64,000 nt of DNA, from NCBI GenBank assembly GCA_965223845.1, contig CBDCXR010000004.1:2496001-2560000 (forward strand), in the 5' to 3' direction. The stretch's first letter is position 1. Each line of letters opens with the position of its first letter. This DNA comes from Planctomycetota bacterium. Its GTDB lineage: Bacteria; Planctomycetota; UBA8108; SXIK01. Below the pieces are notes generated by a model. The model did no database searches and was not told the origin of the DNA. It saw nothing but the letters and a program-made list of their open reading frames with translations. Made by a program: the position numbers and the translations under genes. This document shows positions 1,977 through 58,092 of the stretch, piece by piece.

Positions 1977-2678
1977 TTACCCTCCCGGGTTCAGCGAAAA
2001 CTCTCGCACTAGCCAGGGTTGCCAGAGCGCCGGCTCTGCACCGGTCGAATCGAGATTCGTATAGTCGGCCGCGCGGACCGCGTCCTCGAGGGCTGGAATC
2101 AATCCAAACTCGTTGAGCCGAATGCCGAGCTTCGTCGTGTAATCCTCCTGCAGGTAGTTGCAGGCAAAACAGTGGAAACTACCGTTCGCGACGTATTCTT
2201 CACCCAGTATGTCGAATCCTCGAACCACCGCGCTGTCGTCGCGGCAAACGAGGATGCGTTTCGAGAGGTTGTCCGAAATCCCGAACACGCTCTCTTTATC
2301 CAGGAATTCGTCCACGAACGGGTCGGGTAGCGAGATCTCGAGAAGCTTGACGTTCTCGACGCTGCGCAAGTAACGCTCGTAACAGCTTCTGGCTGACGCG
2401 AGAGTCAGAAACACGTCGCCGAAGCCGAATTCTCCCGCGTCATAGAGCGCGCGAGCCCAACGGAACATTTCGTCCGACCGTGAAGGCGGTAATTCGTTTC
2501 GCCAGTACGTTCGGTATTCGTCAGAGATTTCGTCCCAAGGAACATGGATGCAAGGTAGTAGGTCGCTGAGGCAACCCAGAATCCAGAATGGATCGGGGAG
2601 TAGTTCCGACGACGGTTTGCCGCCACGGACGAGAAAATACCCGCCGAGGAAGTAATCGGGCTGTGCGTCTTCGGTCAC
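1977..2678 (-). CDS. Hypothetical protein (233 aa)
   Basis: GTG start. Protein-like aromatic/acidic composition (GFDILG..FHCFACN..LNEFGLI..AEPALWQPW), unlike the Arg-rich shadow ORFs. Convergent with the gene at 2-1969. Confidence 0.7.
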   Translation of the reverse strand: MTEDAQPDYFLGGYFLVRGGKPSSELLPDPFWILGCLSDLLPCIHVPWDEISDEYRTYWRNELPPSRSDEMFRWARALYDAGEFGFGDVFLTLASARSCYERYLRSVENVKLLEISLPDPFVDEFLDKESVFGISDNLSKRILVCRDDSAVVRGFDILGEEYVANGSFHCFACNYLQEDYTTKLGIRLNEFGLIPALEDAVRAADYTNLDSTGAEPALWQPWLVREFSLNPGG

Positions 2679-2792
2679 TTCGACTCCCAGGATCGAATCC
2701 TCAACGGAGTTTCTCCGCGGTCGTCGAGTCGGCTCGGTCGCTGCCTCTGGCGATCGGTAAGTCGCCGCTCCTCCATCTTCGCCGAAATTCCT

Positions 2793-2821
2793 TGAGGGGC
2801 TCGCACCGGATACGGCGCATT
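2793..2821 (+). promoter_or_regulatory. Candidate ECF-type promoter (TGAGG-N18-CGCATT) for the 2912-7773 operon
   Basis: Bipartite motif about 90 nt upstream of ATG 2912, after an A/T patch (GAAATTCC). Assignment to the ECF is inference only. Confidence 0.3.
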
Positions 2822-2911
2822 GCGAGATAGCCCGTCTGAATCGCCGGCTCGGTTCGGTGCGGATCTCCTGCGATCCAGCGGATTTCGATCATAAGCCAAG
2901 GGAGCCCGACC

Positions 2912-4126
2912 ATGTCACAGCAGAATCTCTTCGTCTCCTCGCTCATCGGGATTCTCGTCCTCGGTGTCGTCGCACTCGGATTCGTAGCGCTCAGCGACCC
3001 ACCACCACCCGATCCCGAAGCCTACGTCGCACGGACCGATCACGACGATCTCCTCGCCCGAAACATCGAGCTGCAGGACCTTTTCGATCGATCCCAGGAA
3101 GAGAACGCCGAGCTCGCTGAGAAGCGAAAGGAGCTCGAGTCTCGCGTGGCCGAGCTCAAGGCCGAGCTGCACGTCGAACACGAGCGCGCCGCCGCCGAGG
3201 CGGAGGCGGAGCTCGCTGCGAACGCGTCGAACGTCCCGATCGCGTTCGGACAGTGGGCCGAGCTCGAGGGCGTCAAGAACGCGAACTGGCCGGAAATGGG
3301 TGAAGCCATCGGGAACATGAACGCACTCATGGTCGAGCTCGTCGCGAGCATGCAGAACGGTGAAGTTCCGAGCGCCGAGCTGCAGGAGAAGATCCGCGAA
3401 GAGAACAACAAGCTCGTTCGCTACGCAGCTCAAGTGATGGGAAAGATCCCGACGCACTCCCCGATCAACGGCGAGTTCAGTCACCCCATCACGGTCGCGA
3501 ATCTCATCGACTCCGTGTTGGAGGGCACGGAGCTCGCACTGAATGAGGATCAGCGAGCCGCAATCGCCAGCTTCGGCGAAGACTACGACCGCGGCTTCGA
3601 TCGTCTCCAGTCGACGTACTCCGACGAGACCACCCGACTCGAAAAGCTCATCGATGAGCTCGAGCTCAAGCGAGACACGAAGCGCAGCATGGAAAGCGTG
3701 CTCACGCCCGATCAGCGCGAGCTTCTCACGCCCGCTGCAATCCGTGATCGTTCGCAAGTCGACCCTCTCTCCCCCGCGGTGATGACCGCGATGATCGCCG
3801 GTGCCAAGAACGTGAAGTCCGTCGACGAGCTTCGCGGTAGACTACCGGAGTACCTGGGCGAGTGGTTCGGGATCAAGAACGTCGCGCCCGAAACGCTCGG
3901 TGCGATCGCCGACTCTTGGATGGAGGAGATGCGGCCGATTCTGACTCCCGTCGAGAGAGCCACCAAGTTTCTCGAGCTCGACCAGACGATCACCGCGGGA
4001 AGAGCGCAGGTGAACGCGATGAAGCAGCTGCTCAGTCTCCAGGACCTAGACGAAAAGGCGCGAAAGGCAATCCTCAATCACATGGGCTGGCGCGTTCCGC
4101 AGGTCGTGGAAGCCTCCCCCGAATGA
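2912..4126 (+). CDS. Membrane-anchored coiled-coil protein with a ~290-aa helical domain paralogous to the kinase's extracytoplasmic domain
   Basis: N-terminal hydrophobic helix (LFVSSLIGILVLGVVALGFVAL), E/K/A-rich coiled coil, then PIAFG...WRVPQV, which aligns without gaps to kinase nt 6274-7143. Stop overlaps the ECF start (ATGA). Confidence 0.85.
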   Translation: MSQQNLFVSSLIGILVLGVVALGFVALSDPPPPDPEAYVARTDHDDLLARNIELQDLFDRSQEENAELAEKRKELESRVAELKAELHVEHERAAAEAEAELAANASNVPIAFGQWAELEGVKNANWPEMGEAIGNMNALMVELVASMQNGEVPSAELQEKIREENNKLVRYAAQVMGKIPTHSPINGEFSHPITVANLIDSVLEGTELALNEDQRAAIASFGEDYDRGFDRLQSTYSDETTRLEKLIDELELKRDTKRSMESVLTPDQRELLTPAAIRDRSQVDPLSPAVMTAMIAGAKNVKSVDELRGRLPEYLGEWFGIKNVAPETLGAIADSWMEEMRPILTPVERATKFLELDQTITAGRAQVNAMKQLLSLQDLDEKARKAILNHMGWRVPQVVEASPE

Positions 4127-4764: not shown

Positions 4765-7773
<3,009 letters not shown>

Positions 7774-25662: not shown

Positions 25663-26460
25663 ATGAACGACACGAGATACTCGCGTCGGCGCTTCATCTC
25701 GACGGCTGCATGCTCGGCGGGCGTGCTTGCGCCAGGCGTCGCTCGATTGGCGACGCTGAGTGCGAGCGTTTCGGACGCCGAGTTTCCGTCTCCATACGGC
25801 GACGTTGCGATCGCATATCAGCGCGATAGCGAATCCATCGCCACGCTCTTCGAAGCCCGCGCGGCGGTGGAGCCCGGTACCGAGGAAACCGCTCCCCTAC
25901 CGGAGCTTCCTCGATCGGCACGCCTCGTCGACGCACGCGGGATCGCGTCGGGTGATTCCGCGTTCGCCCATCGCGGTGCGCGCGTGACCATTCGAGGCAT
26001 CGCTCCCCGAGCGGGCACTGAGATTGCGCCCGTCGAGATGTTCGCGCACTCCCTCGAGTGGCCGGTACCCGTTCGCTTCTGGTCCGCAGATTCCGCCGCG
26101 ACACTCGCGGGAAGAAGCTCGGGGGCGATGACGATCCCCGTTTCACGGCGAGAGGGCTTCGCACTTTCCTTCGAAATCGGTGCCGAGAACCGGGAGAGCC
26201 AGAGTCTCGAGACGCTCAGCGATCAAAAAGCGCTGGGTCGCCAGGTATTCGCGCGGTTCGCGATCGACGGCGCACGCGGGACTCCGAAGCTGCGGCGCGG
26301 GATCTACGTAGTTCGGTGGAGTGACCGTCGCCTTTCGAAGGCGCGGTGTTGGGATCGATGCGTCCTGGATTTGGAGGAGCAACGGTTGATTCGTTCGAGT
26401 GGGCAGGGCTCGGAGCTGAAGGCTGCGTGCGCTCTCGTCAGTGTCGATTACGCCAGTTAG
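25663..26460 (+). CDS. Tat-signal hypothetical protein (265 aa)
   Basis: GGAGGGA SD then MNDTRYSRRRFISTAACSAGVLA (SRRxF Tat motif). Ends 20 nt before the next gene. Confidence 0.7.
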   Translation: MNDTRYSRRRFISTAACSAGVLAPGVARLATLSASVSDAEFPSPYGDVAIAYQRDSESIATLFEARAAVEPGTEETAPLPELPRSARLVDARGIASGDSAFAHRGARVTIRGIAPRAGTEIAPVEMFAHSLEWPVPVRFWSADSAATLAGRSSGAMTIPVSRREGFALSFEIGAENRESQSLETLSDQKALGRQVFARFAIDGARGTPKLRRGIYVVRWSDRRLSKARCWDRCVLDLEEQRLIRSSGQGSELKAACALVSVDYAS

Positions 26461-26480
26461 CGCGAGGGGGTTGAGTAGAG

Positions 26481-28013
26481 ATGAAACAATCAAGGACAGT
26501 CTTCGTCGCCGCTTTCACGATCGTTGCGGTGTTTGCAGTCGACTCCGCCCAGGCGATTCCGATCATTTTCACGGACCGGGCTTCCTGGGACGCCGCGGTG
26601 CTCGCGGGCATCTCCAATGCAGAGATCCGGAAGGAGGATTTCAACGGCCAACCGCTCACTCCGGGGTCGTACGGGGACGTCGGCTACGGCCTGCCCGCCG
26701 GCGCGACGGTCCTCAATCCCGACCTTTCGATGACCCTCAACGATGTCGGAAACGGCGGAAGCCAGACCGGAATCGTGCCCGCGGGTGAGCACGACGGGAC
26801 GCAGGCGCTGAGACTTCGCGTCGTCCCCGACAGCTCGGACATCATCCCGAACGTCCTCCTCGGCGAGGGATGCGAAAGCATCGACTTCAACTTCACCGGA
26901 CCCACCGTGTTCGCGTTTGGCATCGAGTTCGAGACCGCGACGACCCACGACGGCGTGCGGCTTCAGGTGAACGGGGTCAACATTGACGTCGCGAACCACT
27001 ATCCGGAGACGAGCACGAACGACGGCGACGGCTTCCTCGGGATCATCGACATCGACGGCATCGCGTCCATTCGGATGATTCCCGACGACGAAGATCCGGT
27101 GTTCGCGGGCGAGGAGTTCGAGATCGACGAGTTCGAATACGCGATCGAAGGACCCGACCCGAACGACACGACTCCCCCGTCGTGCCGGCTGACCGCGTTC
27201 AACCCCGGCCCCCCGACGAGCATCGAGGTTACGTTCCAAGACGGTGAGAGCGGTCTGTCCGCGATCAACGTCCTAGTCGCCAACAACGCGATCGTCGTCA
27301 TCCCGCCGTTCGCTCCGGGTACAACAGACCCCGTGACCATCGTCGCGACGAAGATCGACCAGGCTCAGTCGGCGCAGGTGATCGTCGAGGCGTTCGATGT
27401 CGACGGAAACCGCGTCGTGTGCGACCCCGTGACCTTCGAGCTCGCCGTCGCGCCGGGCGAGACGGTGGAGTACGTGGTCACGGATATTCCGGAGATCGAA
27501 GGCTGGGTGACGGTCTACAACGAGACGCCCGGTTTCGAGCGGCTCTCCGTCGACGTGAACGGTCTCTCGACCTACACGATCAACAACCTTCAGCCCGGCG
27601 AGATCCGCACGATCAGCGTCTTCCCGCACATGGTCGCCGGTGCGAACACGATGACGTTTATCTCCAACGACGGCGTCGGTGGACTCGCGACGATTCTCAT
27701 AAGCGACGTTCCGCCTCCCTCGCCGTCGGCAAACACGCCACTCTTCGTCCGAGGCGACTCGAACACGGACGGGGTCGTCGACCTCTCCGATTCGATTCAT
27801 CTCCTCGACGCACTCTTCGTAAATCGGAGGCCGTTCGACTGCACCGACGCGAGCGACGCGAACGACGACGGAAACACCGACGTCTCCGACGCCGTGTACG
27901 TGCTCAACTACCTGTTCGTCGGCACCGCGCAGCCTCCGGCTCCCTACCCGGAGTGTGGAGGAGACGCCAGCGCGGACGCTCACGGCTGCGGTAAGAACGA
28001 GGCTTGCTTCTAA
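26481..28013 (+). CDS. Secreted acidic multidomain beta-sandwich protein with C-terminal dockerin-like double EF-hand
   Basis: Sec signal. Ig-like DTTPPSC..GNRVVCDP domain. C-terminus FVRGDSNTDGVVDLSD..DANDDGNTDVSDAVYVLNYLF. Confidence 0.85.
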   Translation: MKQSRTVFVAAFTIVAVFAVDSAQAIPIIFTDRASWDAAVLAGISNAEIRKEDFNGQPLTPGSYGDVGYGLPAGATVLNPDLSMTLNDVGNGGSQTGIVPAGEHDGTQALRLRVVPDSSDIIPNVLLGEGCESIDFNFTGPTVFAFGIEFETATTHDGVRLQVNGVNIDVANHYPETSTNDGDGFLGIIDIDGIASIRMIPDDEDPVFAGEEFEIDEFEYAIEGPDPNDTTPPSCRLTAFNPGPPTSIEVTFQDGESGLSAINVLVANNAIVVIPPFAPGTTDPVTIVATKIDQAQSAQVIVEAFDVDGNRVVCDPVTFELAVAPGETVEYVVTDIPEIEGWVTVYNETPGFERLSVDVNGLSTYTINNLQPGEIRTISVFPHMVAGANTMTFISNDGVGGLATILISDVPPPSPSANTPLFVRGDSNTDGVVDLSDSIHLLDALFVNRRPFDCTDASDANDDGNTDVSDAVYVLNYLFVGTAQPPAPYPECGGDASADAHGCGKNEACF

Positions 28014-28116
28014 GCGCAATCGGTACGACGCGCCGGTCGGTCCGCATCACGATGCGATCGCCCGGCGCGTCGGAAACCCGATCGAATCACCAAGGAACCA
28101 CTCTCGAGGAAGCATC

Positions 28117-28698
28117 ATGGCCGATGTTCAAGGCAATCCCACCATCGGCGTCATCGTCGCGTGGGCGCCGAATTTCGCGCCCCGAGGATGGGCGCTCTGT
28201 AACGGACAACTTCTTCAGATCAGCCAGAATCAGGCGCTGTTTTCGATCCTCGGAACGACCTTCGGCGGTGACGGCCGCGAGACGTTCGGGCTGCCGGACC
28301 TACGCGGTCGGGTAGCGTCTCACCCCACTGGTACTCCGTTTCGGCTGGGAACTAGAGTCGGTGCTGAAACGGTTGCCCTGTCCGGCTCCCAGGTACCGCC
28401 CCACTCCCATCCCATCATGAACAATCCGGTCGACGTTCAGGCCACTTCGAACGAAGGCGACGCGCTTCTTCCGGCCGCGGATCTCCGCCTCGCGGCCGCG
28501 AAGACAACGACTCTCATCGACGTCAATCTCTACAGCGATCAGGCTCCCAATACGACGGTCGGCGGTGTCGAAGTGACGGGTAACGGAGGACTCATCGCGC
28601 AGAACTCGGGCGGAGGCCAAGGACACGCGAACATTCAGCCGTACACGGCGCTCCACTACATCATCGCGCTCCAGGGCGTCTATCCCTCGCGCAACTGA
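28117..28698 (+). CDS. Phage tail-collar domain protein 1 (microcystin-dependent-protein-like)
   Basis: IGVIVAWAPNFAPRGWALCNGQLLQISQNQALFSILGTTFGGDGRETFGLPDLRGR..GGGQGHANIQP..GVYPSRN. ATG 28117 has an SD. Confidence 0.92.
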   Translation: MADVQGNPTIGVIVAWAPNFAPRGWALCNGQLLQISQNQALFSILGTTFGGDGRETFGLPDLRGRVASHPTGTPFRLGTRVGAETVALSGSQVPPHSHPIMNNPVDVQATSNEGDALLPAADLRLAAAKTTTLIDVNLYSDQAPNTTVGGVEVTGNGGLIAQNSGGGQGHANIQPYTALHYIIALQGVYPSRN

Positions 28699-28725
28699 GC
28701 CCCGGTCGGAACAGGAGAACTACTT

Positions 28726-29292
28726 ATGGACGGCACGATCGGAGAAATCGTTCTCTTCGGCGGAACCTTCGCCCCGAGGAACTGGGCGTTTTGCGAGGGT
28801 CAGCTCCTTCAGATCAGCCAGAATCAGGCGCTCTTTTCGGTCCTCGGGACTGCATTCGGCGGCAATGGCGAAACGAGCTTCGCGCTACCCGATCTGCGCG
28901 GCCGCGTTCCCGTCGGTGTCGGGGCGGGTACGGGCCTCTCGACGTACGCCAATCCAGGAGTCCGCGCCGGCGCGAACAGCATCGCGCTCACAGCCGGGCA
29001 GATCCCGCCTCACGGTCACGCCGACGGCGGCTCGAGTCCGACCGTGAAGCTTCGGGCGCACGCGGCGAATCCGGCGGACGCGGAGATCCCCGATCCCGGA
29101 AACATCATCGGGCAGAATGCCGCCGTGGCCGCATTCTCGACGTCGGACGACCCCACGACGCTCGCAAGCCTCGGCGGTCCGGCGGTCACAGTGGGAAACG
29201 GAGGCGGCGGTCAAGCCCACGAAAACCGCCAGCCCACGCTCGGTGTTCATTACGTGATCTGCCTCGTCGGAATCTTCCCCTCGAGAAACTGA
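28726..29292 (+). CDS. Phage tail-collar domain protein 2
   Basis: IGEIVLFGGTFAPRNWAFCEGQLL..ALPDLRGRV..GGGQAHENRQP..GIFPSRN. AGGAG SD. Confidence 0.93.
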   Translation: MDGTIGEIVLFGGTFAPRNWAFCEGQLLQISQNQALFSVLGTAFGGNGETSFALPDLRGRVPVGVGAGTGLSTYANPGVRAGANSIALTAGQIPPHGHADGGSSPTVKLRAHAANPADAEIPDPGNIIGQNAAVAAFSTSDDPTTLASLGGPAVTVGNGGGGQAHENRQPTLGVHYVICLVGIFPSRN

Positions 29293-29360
29293 ACTCGCCG
29301 ATCGATGCGGCAAGAAGAGCAGAATACACCGAGAACAGAACCGGCGATTAGGAGATACGA

Positions 29361-29930
29361 ATGCAAGGCACATTAGGGACCGTTCAACTGTTCGCGGGGA
29401 ACTTCGCTCCCCGAAACTGGGCGTTTTGTGACGGTCAGCTCCTCAACGTTTCGAGCTTCACCGCGCTCTTCTCACTCCTCGGCTCGACTTACGGCGGCGA
29501 CGGAAGAACGACCTTTGCTCTCCCCGATCTCCGCGGGCGAGTGGCCGTCGGAGAAGGGCAGAGCCCTGGACTCTCGCGCTACCGATTGGGACAACGCGGC
29601 GGCGCCGAGCAAGCCTCGGTCTCGGTCAACCAGCTCGGCTCACACACCCATCCCGTATCGGTCGGAACCACGCTCCCGGCATTCAACGGGCCGGCGAATC
29701 AGCACGAGCCGGGAACGGGTCGCGTTCTCGCGCAGCCCACGGCTCAGGGCGCGACCGGCCTTACGATGTACCAGGCGACCGAAGCAGCCGACGTCGATCT
29801 TCAGACAGACGGCGCGGGCAGCCTCGCGCTCGGCGATACGGGCGGCGGGCAGACGCACGAGAACCGGCAGGAGGTGCTCGCGCTGCGGTATATCATCTGC
29901 ATCGTGGGGCTGTTTCCGTCGCGGAACTGA
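29361..29930 (+). CDS. Phage tail-collar domain protein 3
   Basis: LGTVQLFAGNFAPRNWAFCDGQLL..YGGDGRTTFALPDLRGRV..GGGQTHENRQ..GLFPSRN. AGGAG SD. Confidence 0.93.
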   Translation: MQGTLGTVQLFAGNFAPRNWAFCDGQLLNVSSFTALFSLLGSTYGGDGRTTFALPDLRGRVAVGEGQSPGLSRYRLGQRGGAEQASVSVNQLGSHTHPVSVGTTLPAFNGPANQHEPGTGRVLAQPTAQGATGLTMYQATEAADVDLQTDGAGSLALGDTGGGQTHENRQEVLALRYIICIVGLFPSRN

Positions 29931-29976
29931 CCGGCAAGGCCTAAAACGAATCGAGAGTGATCTTCGGCCAGGCCGC

Positions 29977-30031
29977 GAGCTATGCCCTGATCGAGTGCGA
30001 GAAGCGCTCGGTCAGGGCATAGTTCTTTTTT
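29977..30031 (+). terminator. Rho-independent terminator after the collar genes
   Basis: 22-bp stem 29977-29998/30004-30025, fully paired with three G-U wobbles. GAGAA loop, then T6. Confidence 0.85.
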
Positions 30032-30104
30032 GAACATCTTTCCGCGAGAACTCGAACGTCGAAGCTCGTAGGCACGGCCGGCCCGACTGCGGTAGAGTCT
30101 CGGC

Positions 30105-30398
30105 ATGACAGAGATCACCCACGAACTATTCACTGAGCATCTGAATCAGATGTTTCGTATCGTCGCTCCCGACCGCCCCCCCCTCGAGCTCGAGCTGACC
30201 GAAATCGAGGTGATCGACCCCGGCGTCGAACTCAAGGGGATGCGCCAGCCGTTCACGCTCATTTTCACCGGATCGCGCGACGACGTCCTTCCCGAAGGAA
30301 CGTACGCGGCCGAGCACGGAGAGCTCAGTGTGAGCCTCTACTTCATTCCGATCACGACCCTGGGTGCGCGGCAGGACTATCAGGTCGTGTTCAACTGA
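30105..30398 (+). CDS. DUF6916-like small protein (tail-collar-cluster associated)
   Basis: F..HLNQMF..LELELTEI..RQPFTLIF.G..LPEGTY..H..LYFIPI..YQVVFN. TAGAGT at 30093-30098 lies 6 nt before the ATG, so it may be leaderless. Confidence 0.8.
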   Translation: MTEITHELFTEHLNQMFRIVAPDRPPLELELTEIEVIDPGVELKGMRQPFTLIFTGSRDDVLPEGTYAAEHGELSVSLYFIPITTLGARQDYQVVFN

Positions 30399-30508: not shown

Positions 30509-33500
30509 ATGTCGACCCGATGGACCGGGGCGGTCCTCCTGGGTGTGCTGTTGTGCATCGCGAGTCCGTCTCTTCACGGCCAAGAGACGCTTTTCGTTCG
30601 CGGAGACGCCAATCGAACGAACTCCGTCGAGATCGGCGACGCGCTCGCGATCCTTCGTCATCTCTTCGTCGCGGATTTCACGGTCGGTTGTGAAGCCGCC
30701 GCCGACGCCGACGACTCGGGCGGGGTCAATATCGCCGACGCGATGTTCCTCCTCGAGTTTCTCTTCCAAGACGGACCGCCGATCCCGGCACCGTCTCCGC
30801 GATGCGGACCCGATCCGACGCCCGACGGTCTCTCGTGTGACGCCTCGCCGTGCGGTGAAATCGAAAACTCGATCCGGATCAGCGAGGTGATGGCTTCGAA
30901 CTCGGACACTCTCGTCGACTCGGACGGAGACAGTTCCGACTGGTTCGAGCTCGCGTTTCTCTCCGACGCGCCGGCGGATTCCATCGACCTCGGCGGGTGG
31001 TACGTGACGGACGACCCAACTCTGAACGAGCTCTGGCAGATCCCCGCCGGGGTCTCGATCGAGCGGGGCGGCTTTCTCGTGATCTTCGCGTCGGGAAAGG
31101 ATCGGGCTGTCGCCGGAGAGGAGCTGCACGCGGACTTTCGGCTCGACGCGGACGGCGACTACGTCGCGCTCGTCGGTCCCGACGGCGTCACCGTCGTCGA
31201 TGAGCTCGCGCCGGCGTACCCAGAACAGCTCGGAGACATCTCCTACGGTCTCGCGCAGTCGACGACGACGCTCGTCGAAGCGGGGAGCGCCGTTCGCTAC
31301 CTCGTGCCAACGGCAGACGACGCGGCGCTCGGGCAGTCCTGGACGGCTCTCGATTTTGCCGACGGCAGCTGGACCGCGGGAAACCTCGGCCTCGGCTTCA
31401 GTGACATCGATCAGGACGGCTTCGACGTCATTTACATGAAGGCGAACATCATCGTCGATCACATCGACGATGCCGACGACGTCCGTCGGAACAGCGGCCT
31501 GCGAAGCTCGCTGACGCGTGTGTCGGCGTCCTTCATCAACTACTTCAACACCGGTGGGCGCGGAAACTTTGCGAGCGACCGCCCGTTTCCGAGTCTCGGC
31601 TTCTCCGACGTGAACGATTTCGTCGTCCTCGTGCGCGGCACGATTCTCATCCCGAGCGCTGGGCCGTGGAGCTTCGGCGTCAACAGCGACGACGGCTTCA
31701 GCCTTCGGATCTGGAACGATTCCCAGTCGTTTGAGATGGCTCACCCGCAGCCTCGCGCGCCCGCGGACACGATCGAAGGCTTCACCTTCGCGGAGGCCGG
31801 TCTCTACGACGTCGACCTGCTCTTCTACGAACGAGGCGGCGGCGCGAGTCTCGAGTTCTTCGCTGCTCAGGGCAACCGATCGAGCTTCACGTCTGACTTC
31901 AAGCTCGTCGGTGACACGGCGAACGGCGGCCTCGCGCTCGCCGGGTTCGCCTCGGACATCGAGGACGACATCGCGAACGAAATGCAGGGAACGAACGCGT
32001 CGCTCTGGCTTCGCACCGCATTCGACGTCGAGGATCCTGCGGCGCTCGGTGGACTCGTCCTTCGAATGAAATACGCCGACGGCTTCGCTGCGTTCCTGAA
32101 CGGAACCGAAGTCGCGCGGCGCAATTCGTCGGGTCCTCTCGAATGGAACTCGGCGGCGACGTCGGAGCGGTCCGGCGACGAAATCGCGCTCGTCGAGGAG
32201 ATCAACCTCGCCGACGCCCTTCCGCTACTACGTCCCGGCGAAAATATCCTCGCGATCCAGGCGATGAACGACAATGCCTCCGACGGCAACTTCCTCATCC
32301 TCCCAGAGCTCGTCGCCGCCGGCGCGGCGGCCGAGTACCGGTACATGGAGACGCCGACGCCGGGCACGTTCAACTCCTCCGGTGCGATCGATTTCGTCCG
32401 CGACGTCGAGTTCAGCGTCGAGAGGGGTTTTTTCGAAGACTCGTTCTCTCTCTCGCTTTCGACTCCGACAGAAGGAGCGCAGATTCGCTACACGCGAAAC
32501 GGCGGCACTCCGACCGCCACATCGGGTTCGATCTACGATGATTCGATTTCGGTCACCGGTACCTCCATCATTCGAGCGGCCGCGTTCAAGGAAGATCACC
32601 TCGACTCGAACGTGACGACGAACTCGTATCTCTTCGTGAGCGACGTCATCCGTCAGTCGCCGAGCGGTCAGGCTCCGTCCGGCTGGCCGTCGGGAAGCGT
32701 TAACGGCCAGATCCTCGATTACGGCATGGACCCCGACATCGTGAACTCGGCGCGCTGGTCGAGCCAAATGGAGGATGCTCTTCTCTCGATTCCATCGCTC
32801 TCGATCGTCACGGACATCGCGAACCTTTTCAGCTCCTCGACGGGGATCTACGTCAACGCTCGGAACGACGGCCGATCGTGGGAGCGGCGCACGTCGGTCG
32901 AGCTGATCCACCCCGACGGCTCTCCGGGATTCGGGCTCGACGCCGGCCTCCGCATCCGCGGCGCGTTTAGCCGGAGCGGCGACAACCCGAAACACTCGCT
33001 TCGCCTGATCTTCCGCAACGAGTACGGCGCGGGGAAGCTCCGCTACCCGCTCTTCGGCGGGGAAGGCGCCGACGCCTTCGATCGCGTCGACCTCCGGACA
33101 AGCCAAAACTATTCCTGGGCGTTCTCGGGGAGCGACAAGAACACGTTTCTCCGCGACGTATTCTCGCGCGACGTAATGCGCGATTTGCGGAAGCCATACA
33201 CGAAGAGTCGCTACTATCACCTCTACTTGAACGCACAGTACTGGGGACTCTTTCAAACCGAAGAGCGCGCCGACGCTGATTTCGGCGCGACCTATCTCGG
33301 CGGCAGAGACGACGACTACGATGCGATCAAGAACAACTCCTCGGGAAATCGCGCGCTCGAAGCGACCGACGGCACCATGGAAGCTTACCGTCGACTCTAC
33401 GACGCCGCGGTCGCTGGATTCTCGAGCAATACGGCTTACCGGCGCGTGCTCGGGCTGCGCTCCGACGGAACTCCCGACCCGAACGGCGAGAAGCTCGTCG

Positions 33501-34771
33501 ACGCCCAGAATCTCATGGATTACATGGCCTGCACGTACTACACGGGCGACCCCGACGCCCCGGTCAGCGTGTGGGGACACATCTCGAACAACGTCTTCGC
33601 TCTCTACAACCGCGAGAACCCGCAGGGGTTCAGTTGGTTCCGGCACGACGCGGAGCACTCGCTCGGGGCGAACGGTGGCCTCAACGAAGGTCGACTCCTC
33701 ACCGATACGATCGACCGATCGATCGGACAGGAGTGGCGCGACTTCAACCCCGCGTGGCTGCACATCCGGTTGACGGCGAACCGCGAATACCGCATCCAGT
33801 TCGCCGATCGCGTGAACCAACTCTTTTTCGGCAGCGGTGAGCTCAGCCCGGAGCGGAACATCGCCCGCTGGGAAGAGCGCGCACAGGAGATCGAGCTCGC
33901 CGTCATCGCGGCGTCCGCACGCTGGGGCGACTCGAAGCGTGCGACGCCGCGCACGAAGGACGACTGGGAGGACGAATCCGACTGGATGCTGGACACGTTC
34001 TTTCCCCGGAGAACGCAGATCGTTCTCAATCAAATGCGATCGGTGAATATGTTCCCCGACGCGGCGATCGTCGCGTTCAACCAGCACGGCGGGGAGGTTC
34101 CGAGTGGATTCGGGCTCACTATGTCACAATCGAACGGCGACCTCGGAACGATCCTCTACACGACCGACGGAACCGATCCCCGTGAATGGGGAGGCGAGGT
34201 GAACCCCGCGGCGGCGGAGTACACGGATAGCGTCGCGATCACTGAGACGGTGACCGTGAACGCGCGTGTCCGTGACGGATCGACGTGGGGCGCGATGACG
34301 ACGGCGCGATTCACGCTTGGGCTCGAGGGGCTCGTGATCAATGAAATCATGGCGGAGAACGACTCCGTGCTCGAAGATCCCGTCGAACCGGGTGAGTTTC
34401 CAGACTGGATCGAGTTCTACAACGGAACGGCGACCGCGATCGACCTCGGCGGAATGTACCTCACGGACGACCCGCTCGATTTCCAGCAGTGGCAGATACC
34501 GGCCGGAGTGACGATCGGCCCCGGAGAATACCTCGTGTTTCTCGCCGACGACGACGGCACGCAGGGACCGCTCCACACGAACTACCAGCTCAGCCGAACC
34601 GGCGAATCCGTGATCTTGATCGATACGGACGGCGAGACGGTGATCGATGAGGTCACGTTCGACTACCAGTTCGACGACGTGTCGTTCGGACGGTATCCGG
34701 ACGGCGCGGACACGTGGGGATTTCACGACCTACCGACGCCGGGCGCAGCCAATACGCCCGTGACGCCCTAG
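30509..34771 (+). CDS. Secreted CotH-kinase-family protein with N-terminal dockerin-like, lamin-tail (x2), PA14-like and Fn3-associated domains
   Basis: FVRGDAN..DADDSG dockerin. LTDs IRISEVMASN..SDWFEL and LVINEIMAEN..DWIEF. FGVNSDDGF..FYERGGGA (PA14). IRYTRNGGTP. CotH motifs GLRIRG..KHSLRL, YHLYLNAQYWGL and HDAEH. Confidence 0.85.
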   Translation: MSTRWTGAVLLGVLLCIASPSLHGQETLFVRGDANRTNSVEIGDALAILRHLFVADFTVGCEAAADADDSGGVNIADAMFLLEFLFQDGPPIPAPSPRCGPDPTPDGLSCDASPCGEIENSIRISEVMASNSDTLVDSDGDSSDWFELAFLSDAPADSIDLGGWYVTDDPTLNELWQIPAGVSIERGGFLVIFASGKDRAVAGEELHADFRLDADGDYVALVGPDGVTVVDELAPAYPEQLGDISYGLAQSTTTLVEAGSAVRYLVPTADDAALGQSWTALDFADGSWTAGNLGLGFSDIDQDGFDVIYMKANIIVDHIDDADDVRRNSGLRSSLTRVSASFINYFNTGGRGNFASDRPFPSLGFSDVNDFVVLVRGTILIPSAGPWSFGVNSDDGFSLRIWNDSQSFEMAHPQPRAPADTIEGFTFAEAGLYDVDLLFYERGGGASLEFFAAQGNRSSFTSDFKLVGDTANGGLALAGFASDIEDDIANEMQGTNASLWLRTAFDVEDPAALGGLVLRMKYADGFAAFLNGTEVARRNSSGPLEWNSAATSERSGDEIALVEEINLADALPLLRPGENILAIQAMNDNASDGNFLILPELVAAGAAAEYRYMETPTPGTFNSSGAIDFVRDVEFSVERGFFEDSFSLSLSTPTEGAQIRYTRNGGTPTATSGSIYDDSISVTGTSIIRAAAFKEDHLDSNVTTNSYLFVSDVIRQSPSGQAPSGWPSGSVNGQILDYGMDPDIVNSARWSSQMEDALLSIPSLSIVTDIANLFSSSTGIYVNARNDGRSWERRTSVELIHPDGSPGFGLDAGLRIRGAFSRSGDNPKHSLRLIFRNEYGAGKLRYPLFGGEGADAFDRVDLRTSQNYSWAFSGSDKNTFLRDVFSRDVMRDLRKPYTKSRYYHLYLNAQYWGLFQTEERADADFGATYLGGRDDDYDAIKNNSSGNRALEATDGTMEAYRRLYDAAVAGFSSNTAYRRVLGLRSDGTPDPNGEKLVDAQNLMDYMACTYYTGDPDAPVSVWGHISNNVFALYNRENPQGFSWFRHDAEHSLGANGGLNEGRLLTDTIDRSIGQEWRDFNPAWLHIRLTANREYRIQFADRVNQLFFGSGELSPERNIARWEERAQEIELAVIAASARWGDSKRATPRTKDDWEDESDWMLDTFFPRRTQIVLNQMRSVNMFPDAAIVAFNQHGGEVPSGFGLTMSQSNGDLGTILYTTDGTDPREWGGEVNPAAAEYTDSVAITETVTVNARVRDGSTWGAMTTARFTLGLEGLVINEIMAENDSVLEDPVEPGEFPDWIEFYNGTATAIDLGGMYLTDDPLDFQQWQIPAGVTIGPGEYLVFLADDDGTQGPLHTNYQLSRTGESVILIDTDGETVIDEVTFDYQFDDVSFGRYPDGADTWGFHDLPTPGAANTPVTP

Positions 34772-53979: not shown

Positions 53980-56900
53980 TCAGTCGCAATCGAGCCCGTC
54001 CCCGGTTGGATCCTCTCCGATCGCCGCGATCGGAGGTGGCGGGGAGCGACCGCCGAGGAAGAGGTACGAGAGCACGCTTACGACGTCAGAGATTTCGACC
54101 GCGCCGTCATCGTTCGTGTCCGCCGCGTCCCGGCAATCGAGCGCGCCGTGCGCGGCATCTTGGAAGAGAGCGTCGAGTATCTGCACGCAGTCGCCGATGT
54201 CGACCCTGTCGTCCCAGTTGACGTCACCGCGCAGGAAGAGCGGCTCCGGAGTCATGAGCTCGAACTCTTCGAGCGTGAGTACGTTCCGATCGAGCGATTC
54301 GTCCTGCGCCTCGGGACAACGCGTCGAGTCGTAGGCGCCACCGTCGTCGACGCACGCCGCACCAGGCCTCGCGTCGTGCGGAACGCAGAACGTAAGACTC
54401 CCCTCGCAGGTGTCTCCCTGGTCGTCCGCCGCGACGAACCGAATCGTGTAGACGCGGCCGTTTCCGGTCCCGTTCCGCTCGCAGCGCACGGCGGCTGCGT
54501 CGGGCCGGCCGTTTCCGTTGGTGTCCACGAACACGCCATCGGGGCAAGTCTGGCCGCTGCCCTGCCCATTCGATCGGACCGGCTCGTCCTGCGTGATACC
54601 GAGCACCTCGATCGCGATCGGACCGCCCTCCGGATCGACCACTCCGACGATCTCGGTGAGTACGAACCGGTGATTGGGCGGCCAGCATCTCGTTTCGCTC
54701 AGCACCGCGGCGCTGCAGTCCGGCGGTTCGTTCGGTGCGAGAACTGTAAGCAAAATGCACTCCGGGTCGCTCACGTTTCCCGCGGAGTCCGTGGCGACGA
54801 CACAGAGCTCGTATTGACCTGCCTCCGCGAAGGCGAGCTCGGCACGCGCGGTCTCGAGCGGCCCATCGAACGCGCCGTCGGAGGCCTCCATGGCGATGGG
54901 GTCGCCGCCATCGACGACGAGAAGAGCCTCGACGATGTTCGAGCCGCCCGCCGCCGTATCATCGATCGTCGCCGATACGTCCACCGACTCGCCGACCGCC
55001 GCGGGGTTCGGGTCGGCGTCGAGCCCCGAGACGAAGGGAGCCTCCGTGTCCGGCACGACGACCGCAACCGTGGTGCACACGGGTTCGCTCGTGTTTCCGG
55101 CCGCGTCGCTCACCGTCACGCACACCTCGTAGTCGTCCGGAACGTCGAATACGAGCGCCGCGACCACGTCCTCGACCGGAGAGTCGAAGGCGCCGTCGGC
55201 GGCCGCCATCGCCATCGGTGCACCGCCATCGATCGAGTACGACGCGCCAGTGATGACCGAGCCGCCGCTCGCCACGTCGCTCCCGTTCGCGGAAAGAACG
55301 GTCTCATCGCCGGCTTGCACCGGGTTCGGGGTGGCGACGACGCCCGAAACGCTCGGCGCCTCCTCGTCTCCTTCCGTCGGAGTGCCGAGCTTGAAAAGCT
55401 CGCCTCGGATCCCCAAGGCGGCGGCCGCGAAGAAGAGCTCTCCATTCACGTCGGCGAGCCCGGAGAAGGCTTGAAGATCGTCAAAGGGGAGCGGGGAGCT
55501 CCCTTCGGGAGTTCCGTCGGTCATCCAGAGACCGGCAACGCCTCCGACGTTTCCGCCGACGTTCGCCGTGAAGAAGAGAGTGTCGCCGACGACCACCGCC
55601 TCGACGATCCCTCCGAACCCGTTCATCGCCGTGTTGGAGAGAGGCGCCGGATCGGCGATGAGCTCGACCCCTCCCGCTACGGGGTCGTGAGCGTAGAGCG
55701 CGTGACCGCTCGTTCCGATCCCGCTGAAAAAGAGCTTTCCCGCGAAACCCACCAGGGGTTGCGGCGACGCCGCGTCGAGCGGAAAGTCCGTCAGCTGCTC
55801 CGTGACGTTCGCCGTCAAGTCGTGCCGCCAGAGCTCGGCTCCTGCGTCGGTGACCGGGACGAAGTAGAGTGAGTTTCCGAAACCGAGCAAGGACCGGGCG
55901 AACGCGTTCCCGCCCGGACGCACATCGATCGCGACGGTGGCTCCGGTGCTCAGTTCGGTCTTCCAAAGAACCTCGGGCGCCGCCGCGTCCTCCCGCGCGG
56001 TGAAGAAGAGCGTGTCGTCACCGACCAGCGTGAGCTGCCGCGGGCTCGAGCCTCCGGTCGGATTGATGTCGAGGAACTGCTCGGTCGTTCCGTCCGAAGT
56101 TTCGTGCCTCCAAAGCTCGACGCCGCCGCCGTCGTTCGCGGGAAAAAGGAGCGCCGTGCCGACAAGGACGACTTCCGGGACGATCGGGCTCACGGCCACA
56201 TCGGCGGCCGGCTCGACGTCTCCGGTGACGATGTCGAGCCGCCAGAGGCGACCGCCCGTCCCGTCATTGGCGACGAAGTAGAGCGACCCTCCGACCGGAA
56301 TCAGGTCTACCGGTGGATTCAGCGAGCCGCCGTTTGGGTCCAAGTCGGTCCGTCGCTCGGTGATTCCGGTCGCGGGATCGTGACTCCACAGCTCGGTGCC
56401 AGTCGTCCCGTCGGAGGCGAGGAAGAACACCAGTCCGAACGCCTCGGTGAATTCTGTCGGTCGCGAGCTACCCTCGGGGTGGAGGTCGACGACGCGCACG
56501 GTTCCACCCGGCGTCCCGTCACTCTTCCAAAGCTCGACGTTAAATTCCCGAAGATCGCCGCCGGAAAAAGGAAAATCGTCCGCAGCGAAGTAGAGATCGG
56601 AACCCACCACGACTCCGGCCGCAGGATTCGGGAACGACGACAGGGTTTCCTCGTCGCCGAGACGAAGCTCCACGGTGCCGGCTTCGGTTCCGTCGGTCTT
56701 CCATAGCTCGCGCGGCGTATTCTCCAGCCCCCCCGAATTGGTCCTCGGTCTCTGCGCCGCGAAAAAGAGCTCGCCGCCGAAGCTCGTCAAGTCGGTCGGG
56801 AAGGCGGTCCCTTCCGGGTTGACCACGATCTCGACGGTGCCGGCGGCCGTGCCATCGCTCATCCAGATTTGCATCTCCCCTGAGCCGCCGGCGAAGAAGA

Positions 56901-58092
56901 GCGTGCCCTCGACGTCGGTCAGGTCTTGGATGCGGAACGCTTGAGGTCCTGCTGAAGGCTCGGGGTTGAAGTCCGTCACTGTCACGGTTTCGCCCGCAGC
57001 AAAGTCGTGACGCCAGATCTCGAATCCCGTCGAACCGTCATCTCCGGTGAAGTAGAACATCCCGCCGACGTCCGTAAAGTTGCCGACGAGCGTGCTCCCG
57101 CCGCCACTCCAGTTGATGGGCGAGATCGGCGCGGTCTCGTCGGTCGCCGGGTCGAAGCGGTAGAGTTCGAAACCGGGACTCGGGTCGCCGTCGAAGAGAT
57201 AGACGAGAAATCCTCCGACGGGGACAAACACGCGTCCGACGACGTTTGCGGGAACGATTCCGAGATCGACCGTGCCGCCGGCCGTTCCGTCGGACTTCCA
57301 CAGGGTCGGACCCACGATTGCGTCGTTCACAGTGAAGAAGAGCTCCCCGCCGAGAACGGTGATCGGCGTCACGTCGGCGAATCCTCCGGGGTTGAAGCCG
57401 CGCAGGAACTCCGTACCCGCCTCGGTGCCGTCAGAGCGCCAGAGTTCCTCGTGAAGGGGAATTCTCGAGGTCTGTCGGGCGAAGAGGACGATGTCACCCA
57501 GAGCGGTGATCGACGCGACGCCGCCGTCGTCGGGTCCCGGGGTGACGTCCTTCACGAGGACCGTTCCGTCCTCGGTGCCGTCGGTCTTCCAGAGCTCGCG
57601 GCCGTGGACGCCGTCGTCCGCCGAGAAGTAGACCACTCCCCCCGCTCGAGTGAATCCGCCCGGATCGCTGCTCCCCAGGGGGTTCACTCCCGGATGGATC
57701 TCTTTGATCTTGACCGTACCGGCGAGCGTACCGTCGCTCTTCCAAAGGTCACGACCGGTACCGTCTACCCGGCTGAAGTAGAGCGTCCCGTCGCCGCCGT
57801 CCGCGAGGTTGCTCGGCTGTGTGCCGAGGACGGGCCGCGGAGCTTCGAGGATGCGGGAACCCGCCTCGGTGCCGTCGGTGACCCAGAGCTGTCCCAGGTC
57901 TAACTGCGATACGAAGAACAATCGAGATCCGACGGGAGTGAGGCCCGACGGAAAGACTCCGGTCGCGAACGGTGTTTCGTTGATGTCCCGGATGAGGATG
58001 GCGTCGAGGTCATCCGTTTGCGCTGACGCCGGACCGATGGGCACTACCGAAAAGAGAAAGATCCAGACGAGAAAGTTTCGGGATGCGTTCAT
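53980..58092 (-). CDS. Large secreted ELWxxDGT-repeat beta-propeller protein with Ig-like, WPPNH-type and C-terminal dockerin-like domains
   Basis: Signal peptide. Many LWKSDGT/ELWKTDGT/ELWRSDGT repeats. Two GAFDSP/GAFDGP Ig repeats, CWPPNH..GNGRVYTI, and FLRGDVN..DTNDDG..LSYLFLGG. Confidence 0.9.
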   Translation of the reverse strand: MNASRNFLVWIFLFSVVPIGPASAQTDDLDAILIRDINETPFATGVFPSGLTPVGSRLFFVSQLDLGQLWVTDGTEAGSRILEAPRPVLGTQPSNLADGGDGTLYFSRVDGTGRDLWKSDGTLAGTVKIKEIHPGVNPLGSSDPGGFTRAGGVVYFSADDGVHGRELWKTDGTEDGTVLVKDVTPGPDDGGVASITALGDIVLFARQTSRIPLHEELWRSDGTEAGTEFLRGFNPGGFADVTPITVLGGELFFTVNDAIVGPTLWKSDGTAGGTVDLGIVPANVVGRVFVPVGGFLVYLFDGDPSPGFELYRFDPATDETAPISPINWSGGGSTLVGNFTDVGGMFYFTGDDGSTGFEIWRHDFAAGETVTVTDFNPEPSAGPQAFRIQDLTDVEGTLFFAGGSGEMQIWMSDGTAAGTVEIVVNPEGTAFPTDLTSFGGELFFAAQRPRTNSGGLENTPRELWKTDGTEAGTVELRLGDEETLSSFPNPAAGVVVGSDLYFAADDFPFSGGDLREFNVELWKSDGTPGGTVRVVDLHPEGSSRPTEFTEAFGLVFFLASDGTTGTELWSHDPATGITERRTDLDPNGGSLNPPVDLIPVGGSLYFVANDGTGGRLWRLDIVTGDVEPAADVAVSPIVPEVVLVGTALLFPANDGGGVELWRHETSDGTTEQFLDINPTGGSSPRQLTLVGDDTLFFTAREDAAAPEVLWKTELSTGATVAIDVRPGGNAFARSLLGFGNSLYFVPVTDAGAELWRHDLTANVTEQLTDFPLDAASPQPLVGFAGKLFFSGIGTSGHALYAHDPVAGGVELIADPAPLSNTAMNGFGGIVEAVVVGDTLFFTANVGGNVGGVAGLWMTDGTPEGSSPLPFDDLQAFSGLADVNGELFFAAAALGIRGELFKLGTPTEGDEEAPSVSGVVATPNPVQAGDETVLSANGSDVASGGSVITGASYSIDGGAPMAMAAADGAFDSPVEDVVAALVFDVPDDYEVCVTVSDAAGNTSEPVCTTVAVVVPDTEAPFVSGLDADPNPAAVGESVDVSATIDDTAAGGSNIVEALLVVDGGDPIAMEASDGAFDGPLETARAELAFAEAGQYELCVVATDSAGNVSDPECILLTVLAPNEPPDCSAAVLSETRCWPPNHRFVLTEIVGVVDPEGGPIAIEVLGITQDEPVRSNGQGSGQTCPDGVFVDTNGNGRPDAAAVRCERNGTGNGRVYTIRFVAADDQGDTCEGSLTFCVPHDARPGAACVDDGGAYDSTRCPEAQDESLDRNVLTLEEFELMTPEPLFLRGDVNWDDRVDIGDCVQILDALFQDAAHGALDCRDAADTNDDGAVEISDVVSVLSYLFLGGRSPPPPIAAIGEDPTGDGLDCD

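Follow-up and report, generated by a model that had tools for sequence, protein, structure and literature searches.

Why do three genes for phage-type fibre tips lie side by side in the chromosome of a planctomycete, with no phage gene nearby, and what could their products do for the cell? This question is raised by a stretch of 64,000 nucleotides (called the window in what follows), which is situated on contig C4 of the genome of a Planctomycetota bacterium (G000; 7.9 Mb, 4 contigs, 91.7% complete). Six genes on the plus strand, from position 25663 to 30398, encode there a protein with a twin-arginine-type motif (Tat265), a secreted protein (Sec510), three tail-collar proteins (Col1, Col2 and Col3) and a protein of the family DUF6916. 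Judged by their sequences, Col1–Col3 are complete tail-fibre tip modules of the T4 gp12/gp37 type, without a shaft, and the locus belongs, as a divergent form, to a cellular cassette that uses phage fibre tips as its building blocks, is widespread and has apparently not been described. As for function, the preferred reading is that the collars would form a trimeric, probably heterotrimeric binding head of the gp12/gp37 type, which would be exported in the folded state and held by a secreted partner; the chances of this reading are put slightly below even.

The six co-oriented genes of the original prediction were all recovered, each as an intact open reading frame (ORF). The gaps between the genes, from Tat265 through Col3, are 20, 103, 27 and 68 bp, and an AGGAG-like Shine-Dalgarno site is present 5' of each collar gene. 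Base composition is level over the window and is the same in the locus as in its flanks.

Col1 (193 amino acids; 28117–28698, plus strand), Col2 (188 amino acids; 28726–29292, plus strand) and Col3 (189 amino acids; 29361–29930, plus strand) matched the Pfam family Collar (PF07484) with E-values of 1.3e-28, 1.7e-28 and 3e-27 and scores of 99.2, 98.8 and 94.8 bits, respectively, all above the curated cut-off of 24 bits. The three are paralogues with shared ends and divergent middles, as had been described from the sequence: pairwise identities were 55–57% in the N-terminal part, 6–23% in the middle and 55–65% in the C-terminal block. In Col1 the collar domain is followed by an HSH triad at residues 96–98, a variable middle (nt 28411–28602) and a C-terminal GGGQxHxNxQ...YPSRN block; Col2 has HGH at residues 96–98 and its variable middle at nt 29020–29196, Col3 has HTH at residues 95–97 and its variable middle at nt 29652–29834, and a C-terminal block of the form GGGQxHxNxQ...FPSRN is common to all three. 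Both histidines of the HxH pair were unchanged in 71 of 71 aligned family sequences. No N-terminal signal sequence was detected by eye in any of the three, in agreement with the original prediction; the collar domain opens at residue 6–11, and an N-terminal shaft or a part for attachment to a baseplate is missing.

The relationship to phage fibres was evident at several levels. Col1–Col3 matched phage tail PHROGs across nearly their full length, Col2 was similar to T4 gp12 by sequence (E 1.5e-4), and the collar family as such matched T4 gp12 with an E-value of 1.6e-5. Col3 matched 474 phage records, phage minor tail proteins among them, all with less than 60% identity (36–37% among the matches listed); in 216 of the 474 records a single place spanned at least 80% of Col3. 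A profile of the 71 family members matched the solved phage long tail fibre 8kec_A with an E-value of 1e-9, the HxH pair being aligned to HQH of 8kec_A, and a second, weak stretch of this match (5.9 bits) covered the C-terminal G-x-Q-x-x-x-x-QPYL block. In gp12 and gp37 the HxH pair binds metal on the trimer axis, and the C-terminal block of fibres of this type returns to the collar.

Fibre tips of this kind would be expected in a prophage or in a contractile injection system, and the surroundings were therefore inspected for such genes. The description of the 64 kb as phage-free was corroborated: none of the 20 further ORFs of the window matched a phage family, and these ORFs are ordinary planctomycete genes (PSD/PSCyt, DUF1501, sulfatase, kinase, pyruvate carboxylase, ABC transporter). 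When the whole genome was checked for contractile-injection and prophage genes, as had been suggested, one collar locus only was present in G000, and its sole sheath match as well as all matches to Baseplate_J, HK97-type capsid and portal proteins were outside the window. The sheath and the nearest Baseplate_J are located at C4:2.092–2.100 Mb, 421 kb upstream of the collars, in a compact locus of the contractile-injection type (C4:2089059–2103149; L103, L104), which contains sheath, gp19-type tube, GPD/base-V hub, Baseplate_J, a P2-I-like protein and a 760-aa patatin-like protein, with a PKD/PASTA protein in the fibre position. A second Baseplate_J match was noted at C4:7.788 Mb. Contig C3 (42,048 bp) carries a portal protein (E 3e-98) and an HK97-type capsid protein (E 2e-41), at 2138–3127 and 5263–6129, and no collar genes; it is probably a piece of a phage or prophage. 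Since the window is without phage genes, the injection genes are 421 kb off and capsid and portal are on a separate contig, the collar locus is not part of a prophage or of the injection locus. PADLOC models of anti-phage defence, when run against all six proteins, gave 0 families.

Could the locus then be what is left of a decayed tail module of a prophage, without present function? The collar fold is of the phage type, which is what such a remnant should display; the ORFs are intact and preceded by AGGAG-like sites, their composition resembles that of the flanks, phage genes are missing from the window, and the gene set has been kept across many phyla and in two families of the order. A remnant appears very unlikely for these reasons, almost to the point of being negligible.

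The distribution of the collars outside phages was assessed by scanning species-representative genomes with the collar alignment, which yielded 563 confirmed relatives; the best 80 loci were scored with hidden Markov models (HMMs) built in this analysis. They were from Bacteroidota, Pseudomonadota, Myxococcota, Acidobacteriota, Chloroflexota, Verrucomicrobiota, Planctomycetota, Gemmatimonadota, Bacillota and others. Cellular collars were 40–54% identical between phyla, compared with about 36% identity to phage proteins. Tandem triplets were present in 30 of the 80 loci; 27 of these were accompanied by a specific GNAT protein, 24 by DUF6916, 23 by both and 2 by neither. The original prediction had stated that collar triplets recur outside prophages beside large proteins, and this neighbourhood survey agreed: a same-strand, stop-to-stop ORF of 1000–3000 aa ended just upstream of 13 of the 32 triplet arrays. 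In two loci (L072 and L082, metagenome-assembled genomes (MAGs) of Anaerolineales and Lysobacterales) two triplets were found side by side, split by DUF6916 or by GNAT plus DUF6916. The first collar of L070 (9495–9991, a Thalassolituus MAG) was split into two HMM hits that overlap and are in different frames, pointing to a frameshift or to an error of assembly. A description of this cellular collar cassette was not found in print, and DUF6916 gave no match in the literature.

Within the canonical cassette the three collars are of distinct types. The collars of 23 canonical loci served to build HMMs for types A, B and C, which placed 69 of the 75 collars of these same loci correctly (an in-sample figure); the six misplaced collars were those of two loci (L043, L078) with the order B-C-A, a circular permutation of A-B-C. 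The canonical triplets of planctomycetes (L014, L017) sorted correctly with margins of 10–47 bits. The window is different. No GNAT-HMM hit was obtained in it, and the rest of G000 yielded nothing beyond a weak, generic hit at a distance of 2.1 Mb. In a maximum-likelihood tree of 63 rows, whose support values are rough, as the bootstrap had not fully settled, the canonical A clade (97/81) and B clade (97/92) were recovered, and the window collars were outside both. Col1 paired with collar 1 of a second genome, G406, described below (95/95); Col2 and Col3 grouped together (90/84), within a clade (99/92) to which two triplets without GNAT, L049 and L083, also belonged. In L049 (100/99), L083 (84/76) and L026 (84/99) the three copies of a locus clustered with each other, which would suggest a repeated origin of triplets. 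The window locus is thus an atypical member of the cassette, without GNAT and with collars that are not of the A-B-C types.

Whether three neighbouring collar genes stand for one mixed trimer or for three separate ones is a question on which these distributions bear. Three different homotrimers, each a binding head of its own, would make the tandem array a means of diversifying specificity and not of co-assembly. The largest array was one gene in 32 of the 80 loci and two genes in 18, and homotrimers must therefore work in this family; the middles of Col1–Col3 also differ strongly. The tip of T4 gp12 is a homotrimer. The T4 gp37 tip is a homotrimer as well (PMC12724248). On the other hand, arrays of more than three collars were found in 0 of the 80 loci, whereas free diversification should yield larger ones; independent triplications halted at three; and the canonical cassette holds one copy of each paralogue type. 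A precedent was found in the only paper that a literature search for heterotrimers of tail collar domains brought up: in the virophage DSLV2, three consecutive PF07484 proteins are purified together, in a 1:1:1 complex of about 55 kDa (PMC12724248, J Virol 2025). Separate homotrimers are accordingly considered unlikely. Because arrays never exceed three, triplets are repeated, the canonical types are three and fixed, and a 1:1:1 complex is on record for the virophage, a single and probably mixed trimer is the form of the binding head that is preferred here.

A second example of the locus came from G406, a genome of the same order and of another family. On its contig C302 a homologue of Tat265 is followed by collar 1, collar 2, collar 3 and a 438-aa stop-to-stop ORF with a signal peptide, the m1 domain of Sec510 (see below), thrombospondin-type-3-like (TSP3-like) repeats and a dockerin-like end. 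The two triplets gave one-to-one best matches, Col1 with collar 1 (E 1e-60), Col2 with collar 2 (E 6e-50) and Col3 with collar 3 (E 1e-56). By homology, the same five families are together in two genomes, with a different gene order. A further contig of G406, C157, carries a cassette-type GNAT and DUF6916 back to back at its end (L114, 9829–10771) and no collars; the remainder of that cassette may be unassembled, and the end of C157 was not found to overlap the start of C302.

Tat265 (265 aa; 25663–26460, plus strand) begins with an SRRRFIS motif of the twin-arginine type, followed by a hydrophobic stretch. A word-based search of 5.8 billion proteins found only Tat265 itself; a search of 20 relatives revealed one homologue, that of G406, with 33% identity and the motif kept, and the family was present in 2 of 59 genomes of the class. 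The designation "Tat" is used because of the motif, its conservation in this one homologue and the presence of TatC in G000. In an Atlas search the only neighbours were Tat-signal-like, at 0.83. A single-sequence fold model had a low predicted local distance difference test score (pLDDT 31.9). An antisense ORF of 116 aa (26143–26493, minus strand) overlaps the 3' end of Tat265 and showed a slightly better contrast between GC3 and GC2 in a crude gene picker; because Tat265 is kept in G406, it is taken as the real gene in preference to the antisense ORF.

The comparison of the two genomes also bears on the idea that the triplet could provide, in trans, the fibres of the contractile injection particle whose genes are 421 kb away. 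G000 does hold a locus with sheath, tube, hub, Baseplate_J and P2-I proteins; the only paralogue of Sec510 in G000, a 618-aa secreted protein (C4:2084748–2086604; L103:6748–8604), is encoded about 2.5 kb from the end of that locus; and G406, the sole other genome with this variant of the cassette, was also positive for sheath. It was, however, the only positive one among 10 other genomes with collars or DUF6916 that were searched with the sheath profile, while five sheath-positive relatives (G338, G401, G408, G414, G081) are without Tat265. Sheath was present in 7 of 59 genomes of the class, mostly large ones, so that two joint occurrences are weak evidence. In addition, the injection locus has its own protein in the fibre position, the collars have no part by which to attach to a baseplate, and the sheath contig of G406 has the sheath alone in common with the G000 locus. 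Delivery in trans is regarded as decidedly improbable.

For the binding head that is preferred here, a secreted partner is an essential element, and Sec510 (510 aa; 26481–28013, plus strand) would be the candidate. It consists of a Sec-type signal (about residues 1–24), a domain termed m1 (about 25–230), a pair of immunoglobulin-like domains termed m2 (about 225–411) and a dockerin-like double calcium-binding module (416–510; nt 27726–28010). No Pfam or NCBIfam family was matched when scans were read at E ≤ 0.01, the limit that was used for Tat265 too. The dockerin tag of the original prediction was upheld in part: about 280 places in G000 were homologous to the module by tblastn, but Dockerin_1 (PF00404) scored 9 bits (E 2.2), below its cut-off of 22.9 bits, and the module is therefore called dockerin-like only. 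Searches with Sec510 showed two separate modules, each with many relatives. The paralogue mentioned above shares 40% identity over residues 210–415, plus the dockerin-like end. At all five collar loci of the order (5/5), a protein with a dockerin-like end is encoded no more than 1.2 kb away.

The m1 domain is much rarer. It was detected in 1 of 401 genomes of the phylum, namely in G000 (G406 was outside that sample), and a first scan of metagenomes with m1 gave no relative. Relatives elsewhere are proteins of about 250 aa, most of them with PEP-CTERM-like ends; such an anchor was seen by eye at the end of 9 of 11 aligned m1 relatives, and Pfam confirmed it in 1 of 2 that were tested.

The gene for DUF6916 (97 aa; 30105–30398, plus strand) begins 174 bp after Col3 and was identified by its match to PF21880 (E 9e-18), which substantiated the earlier assignment as DUF6916-like. 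It had been considered part of one operon of six genes. This part of the original prediction probably does not hold: at 29977–30033 on the plus strand, scanning and folding revealed an intrinsic-terminator-like hairpin with 22 perfect pairs and a 5-nt loop, followed by a run of T. It folded with -48 kcal/mol, whereas shuffled sequences reached -23.9 on average (z -7.5), and 0 of 200 of them were as good. With this hairpin between Col3 and DUF6916, the six genes are probably not on one transcript, and DUF6916 would probably be a separate transcription unit here.

DUF6916 is encoded once in G000, and of 401 genomes sampled from the phylum 10 had it; in 9 of the 9 other genomes having it, it adjoins collar genes, the arrays at these nine loci comprising three genes in 2, one gene in 5 and being cut by the contig end in 2. 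A regular expression, used as a heuristic over all loci, found a Tat-like motif in 13 of 51 DUF6916 ORFs, at least one of which is doubtful; within the phylum such a Tat-motif DUF6916 often adjoins a signal-less collar gene (L015, L016, L019, L021, L022, L115). The window DUF6916 has no signal sequence. Its model, a six-stranded split beta-barrel, had a pLDDT of 91.5. Foldseek gave no match with this model at E ≤ 0.001, a word-based search for homologues returned only the query, and the best VIA-align results were generic split barrels (YcgR-N/MrkH) with Z scores of 8.2–8.7, near the typical chance best. As these scores are close to those of unrelated models, no function was deduced for DUF6916.

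The lack of signal sequences on Col1–Col3 and on DUF6916 may also be read in another way, namely that the collars are cytoplasmic and not adhesive, perhaps binding a sugar nucleotide or an envelope precursor, and that the secreted neighbours are unrelated to them. The GNAT of the canonical cassette is of a cytoplasmic type, and the fold of DUF6916 is shared with cytoplasmic ligand-binding barrels (YcgR-N/MrkH), both of which would fit. Such a role does not account for the exported neighbours which are met repeatedly, i.e., DUF6916 with a Tat motif, giant upstream ORFs and partners of the dockerin-like or PEP-CTERM type; moreover, all characterised relatives are extracellular receptor-binding tips. 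A cytoplasmic function is thus quite unlikely.

Returning to the exported binding head, we infer the composition of the trimer, its export route, its location at the surface, its ligand and all contacts between the proteins as follows. Folding of the three collar paralogues in the cytoplasm would give a single trimer, most likely with one chain of each (1:1:1), and their divergent middles would together make up a composite surface, the ligand of which would probably be a glycan. Because the collars are without a signal sequence, export via a partner is proposed: the folded trimer would leave the cytoplasm attached to a protein with a twin-arginine signal, which would be Tat265 here and a Tat-signal DUF6916 in related loci. 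Outside, the co-encoded secreted protein with its signal, m1 domain and dockerin-like end might fix the trimer to the cell surface. DUF6916 would be a conserved accessory, a small split beta-barrel, which in this locus would be transcribed separately.

Several observations weigh against this reading. In 50 of the 80 loci the array has no more than two collar genes. Against the type HMMs the window collars scored 146–176 bits with margins of 2–8, compared with 198–290 bits in canonical loci; since they fit none of the A, B and C types, the argument for a heterotrimer from fixed paralogues is not directly transferable to them. Of the claim of a Tat protein, the S-R-R-x-F-I motif, its retention in G406 and the presence of TatC stood, but support by models did not, as no Pfam or NCBIfam family, the Tat-signal models included, was matched by Tat265. 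Its GC contents at the three codon positions (0.66/0.58/0.71) indicate a weaker bias than in the neighbouring genes. That Tat265 is itself a divergent DUF6916 found no support in profile comparisons by hmmsearch (2.4 bits) and hhalign (probability about 1%). That flanking genes are kept with collar triplets was true of DUF6916, widely, and of Tat265 and the m1 protein in G406; Tat265 and Sec510 families were, however, not found in 100 other loci (9 + 80 collar loci and 11 loci of m1 relatives). Tat265 and Sec510 look linked to the triplet, with one other genome as the basis. Distant m1 relatives were near collar genes in 0 of the 11 metagenome loci, many of which are on short contigs. First-look candidates for dockerin-like modules numbered 199–538 per genome in the four genomes of the order that were examined; such modules are spaced roughly 19–28 kb apart, and because they are so frequent some adjacency of collars and dockerin-like modules is expected by chance; the five collar loci of the order which share this adjacency are from related genomes and are not independent samples.

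A wider proposal would extend the binding head beyond this locus: the receptor-binding tip of phages may have been taken over across many phyla as a cellular head, a metal-stapled trimer of up to three different chains, which is put together in the cytoplasm, exported in the folded state by a Tat partner and held by a lineage-specific anchor, dockerin-like here and PEP-CTERM or giant adhesins elsewhere. Taken as a whole this is possible, if somewhat unlikely. If it were true, the planctomycete locus would be a version without GNAT that was triplicated independently and has a Tat carrier of its own, and the three-chain design would be convergent and not inherited.

Of the devices by which cell surfaces are specifically recognized, the tips of phage tail fibres are understood best. 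Should the reading as a binding head hold, a new class of bacterial devices for surface recognition would be at hand in many phyla, from which natural binding heads of three chains, with specificity loops that can be swapped, could be drawn. The locus shows that GNAT is dispensable and that exported partners are exchanged between lineages, the collar core remaining constant. It also offers a compact test case for the co-export of a folded fibre tip by the Tat route, with five genes in two genomes and in different orders.

Downstream of the six genes, and probably outside the cassette, a secreted protein of 1420 aa is encoded (30509–34771, plus strand), for which Pfam indicated an N-terminal dockerin-like module (Dockerin_1, E 0.0069), then LTD, CotH and CHB_HEX_C domains; a relative of it was near the collar cassette in only 1 of the 80 loci (L043). 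Three dockerin-like modules are contained in the 64 kb altogether, in Sec510, in the 1420-aa protein (at about 30590) and in an ORF of 1370 aa at 53980–58092 on the minus strand (at about 53986).

With respect to known systems, the type I dockerin–cohesin pairs of cellulosomes have in common with Sec510 and the 1420-aa neighbour the paired calcium-binding loop-helix repeats at a protein terminus and the weak matches to Dockerin_1; the module of the window differs as a cysteine-containing planctomycete variant, which is below the Pfam threshold and occurs about 280 times in G000. The export proposed for the collars has its model in the Tat "hitchhiker" mechanism, by which signal-less subunits are carried along, as in HybO/HybC and DmsA/DmsB of Escherichia coli. 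Here, too, signal-less proteins, for which folding and oligomerisation would have to take place in the cytoplasm, are encoded beside a partner with a twin-arginine motif and TatC is present, but a cofactor-containing redox enzyme is not involved, and the Tat motif is recognized from the residues themselves, without an HMM match. The tips of T4 gp12 (1ocy, 1pdi, 5iv5) and gp37 and the fibre 8kec_A resemble Col1–Col3 in the collar domain, the HxH pair and the C-terminal block, whereas in the window the tip is a free-standing, shaftless protein of about 190 aa, in three paralogues, on a chromosome without phage genes nearby.

A parallel to three different chains is the tripartite tail of the virophage, which assembles into fibres of about 16 nm and attaches to lipopolysaccharide of Synechococcus (PMC12724248). 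DSLV2 and the window are alike in having three consecutive PF07484 proteins of similar size; the DSLV2 proteins are viral and structural, while the collars of the window are cellular and have as neighbours DUF6916, a protein with a Tat motif and a secreted protein with a dockerin-like end. From the canonical cellular cassette (A-B-C plus GNAT and DUF6916) the window differs in that GNAT is missing, its collars are outside the A and B clades, the upstream protein has 510 aa instead of at least 1000, and the Tat-motif protein is unrelated to DUF6916. The local novelty would appear to consist in these features, i.e., a GNAT-free locus, an independently derived triplet and exported partners specific to the lineage, while three tandem collars, a linked DUF6916, an upstream gene for a secreted protein and a non-phage context are shared with the canonical cassette.

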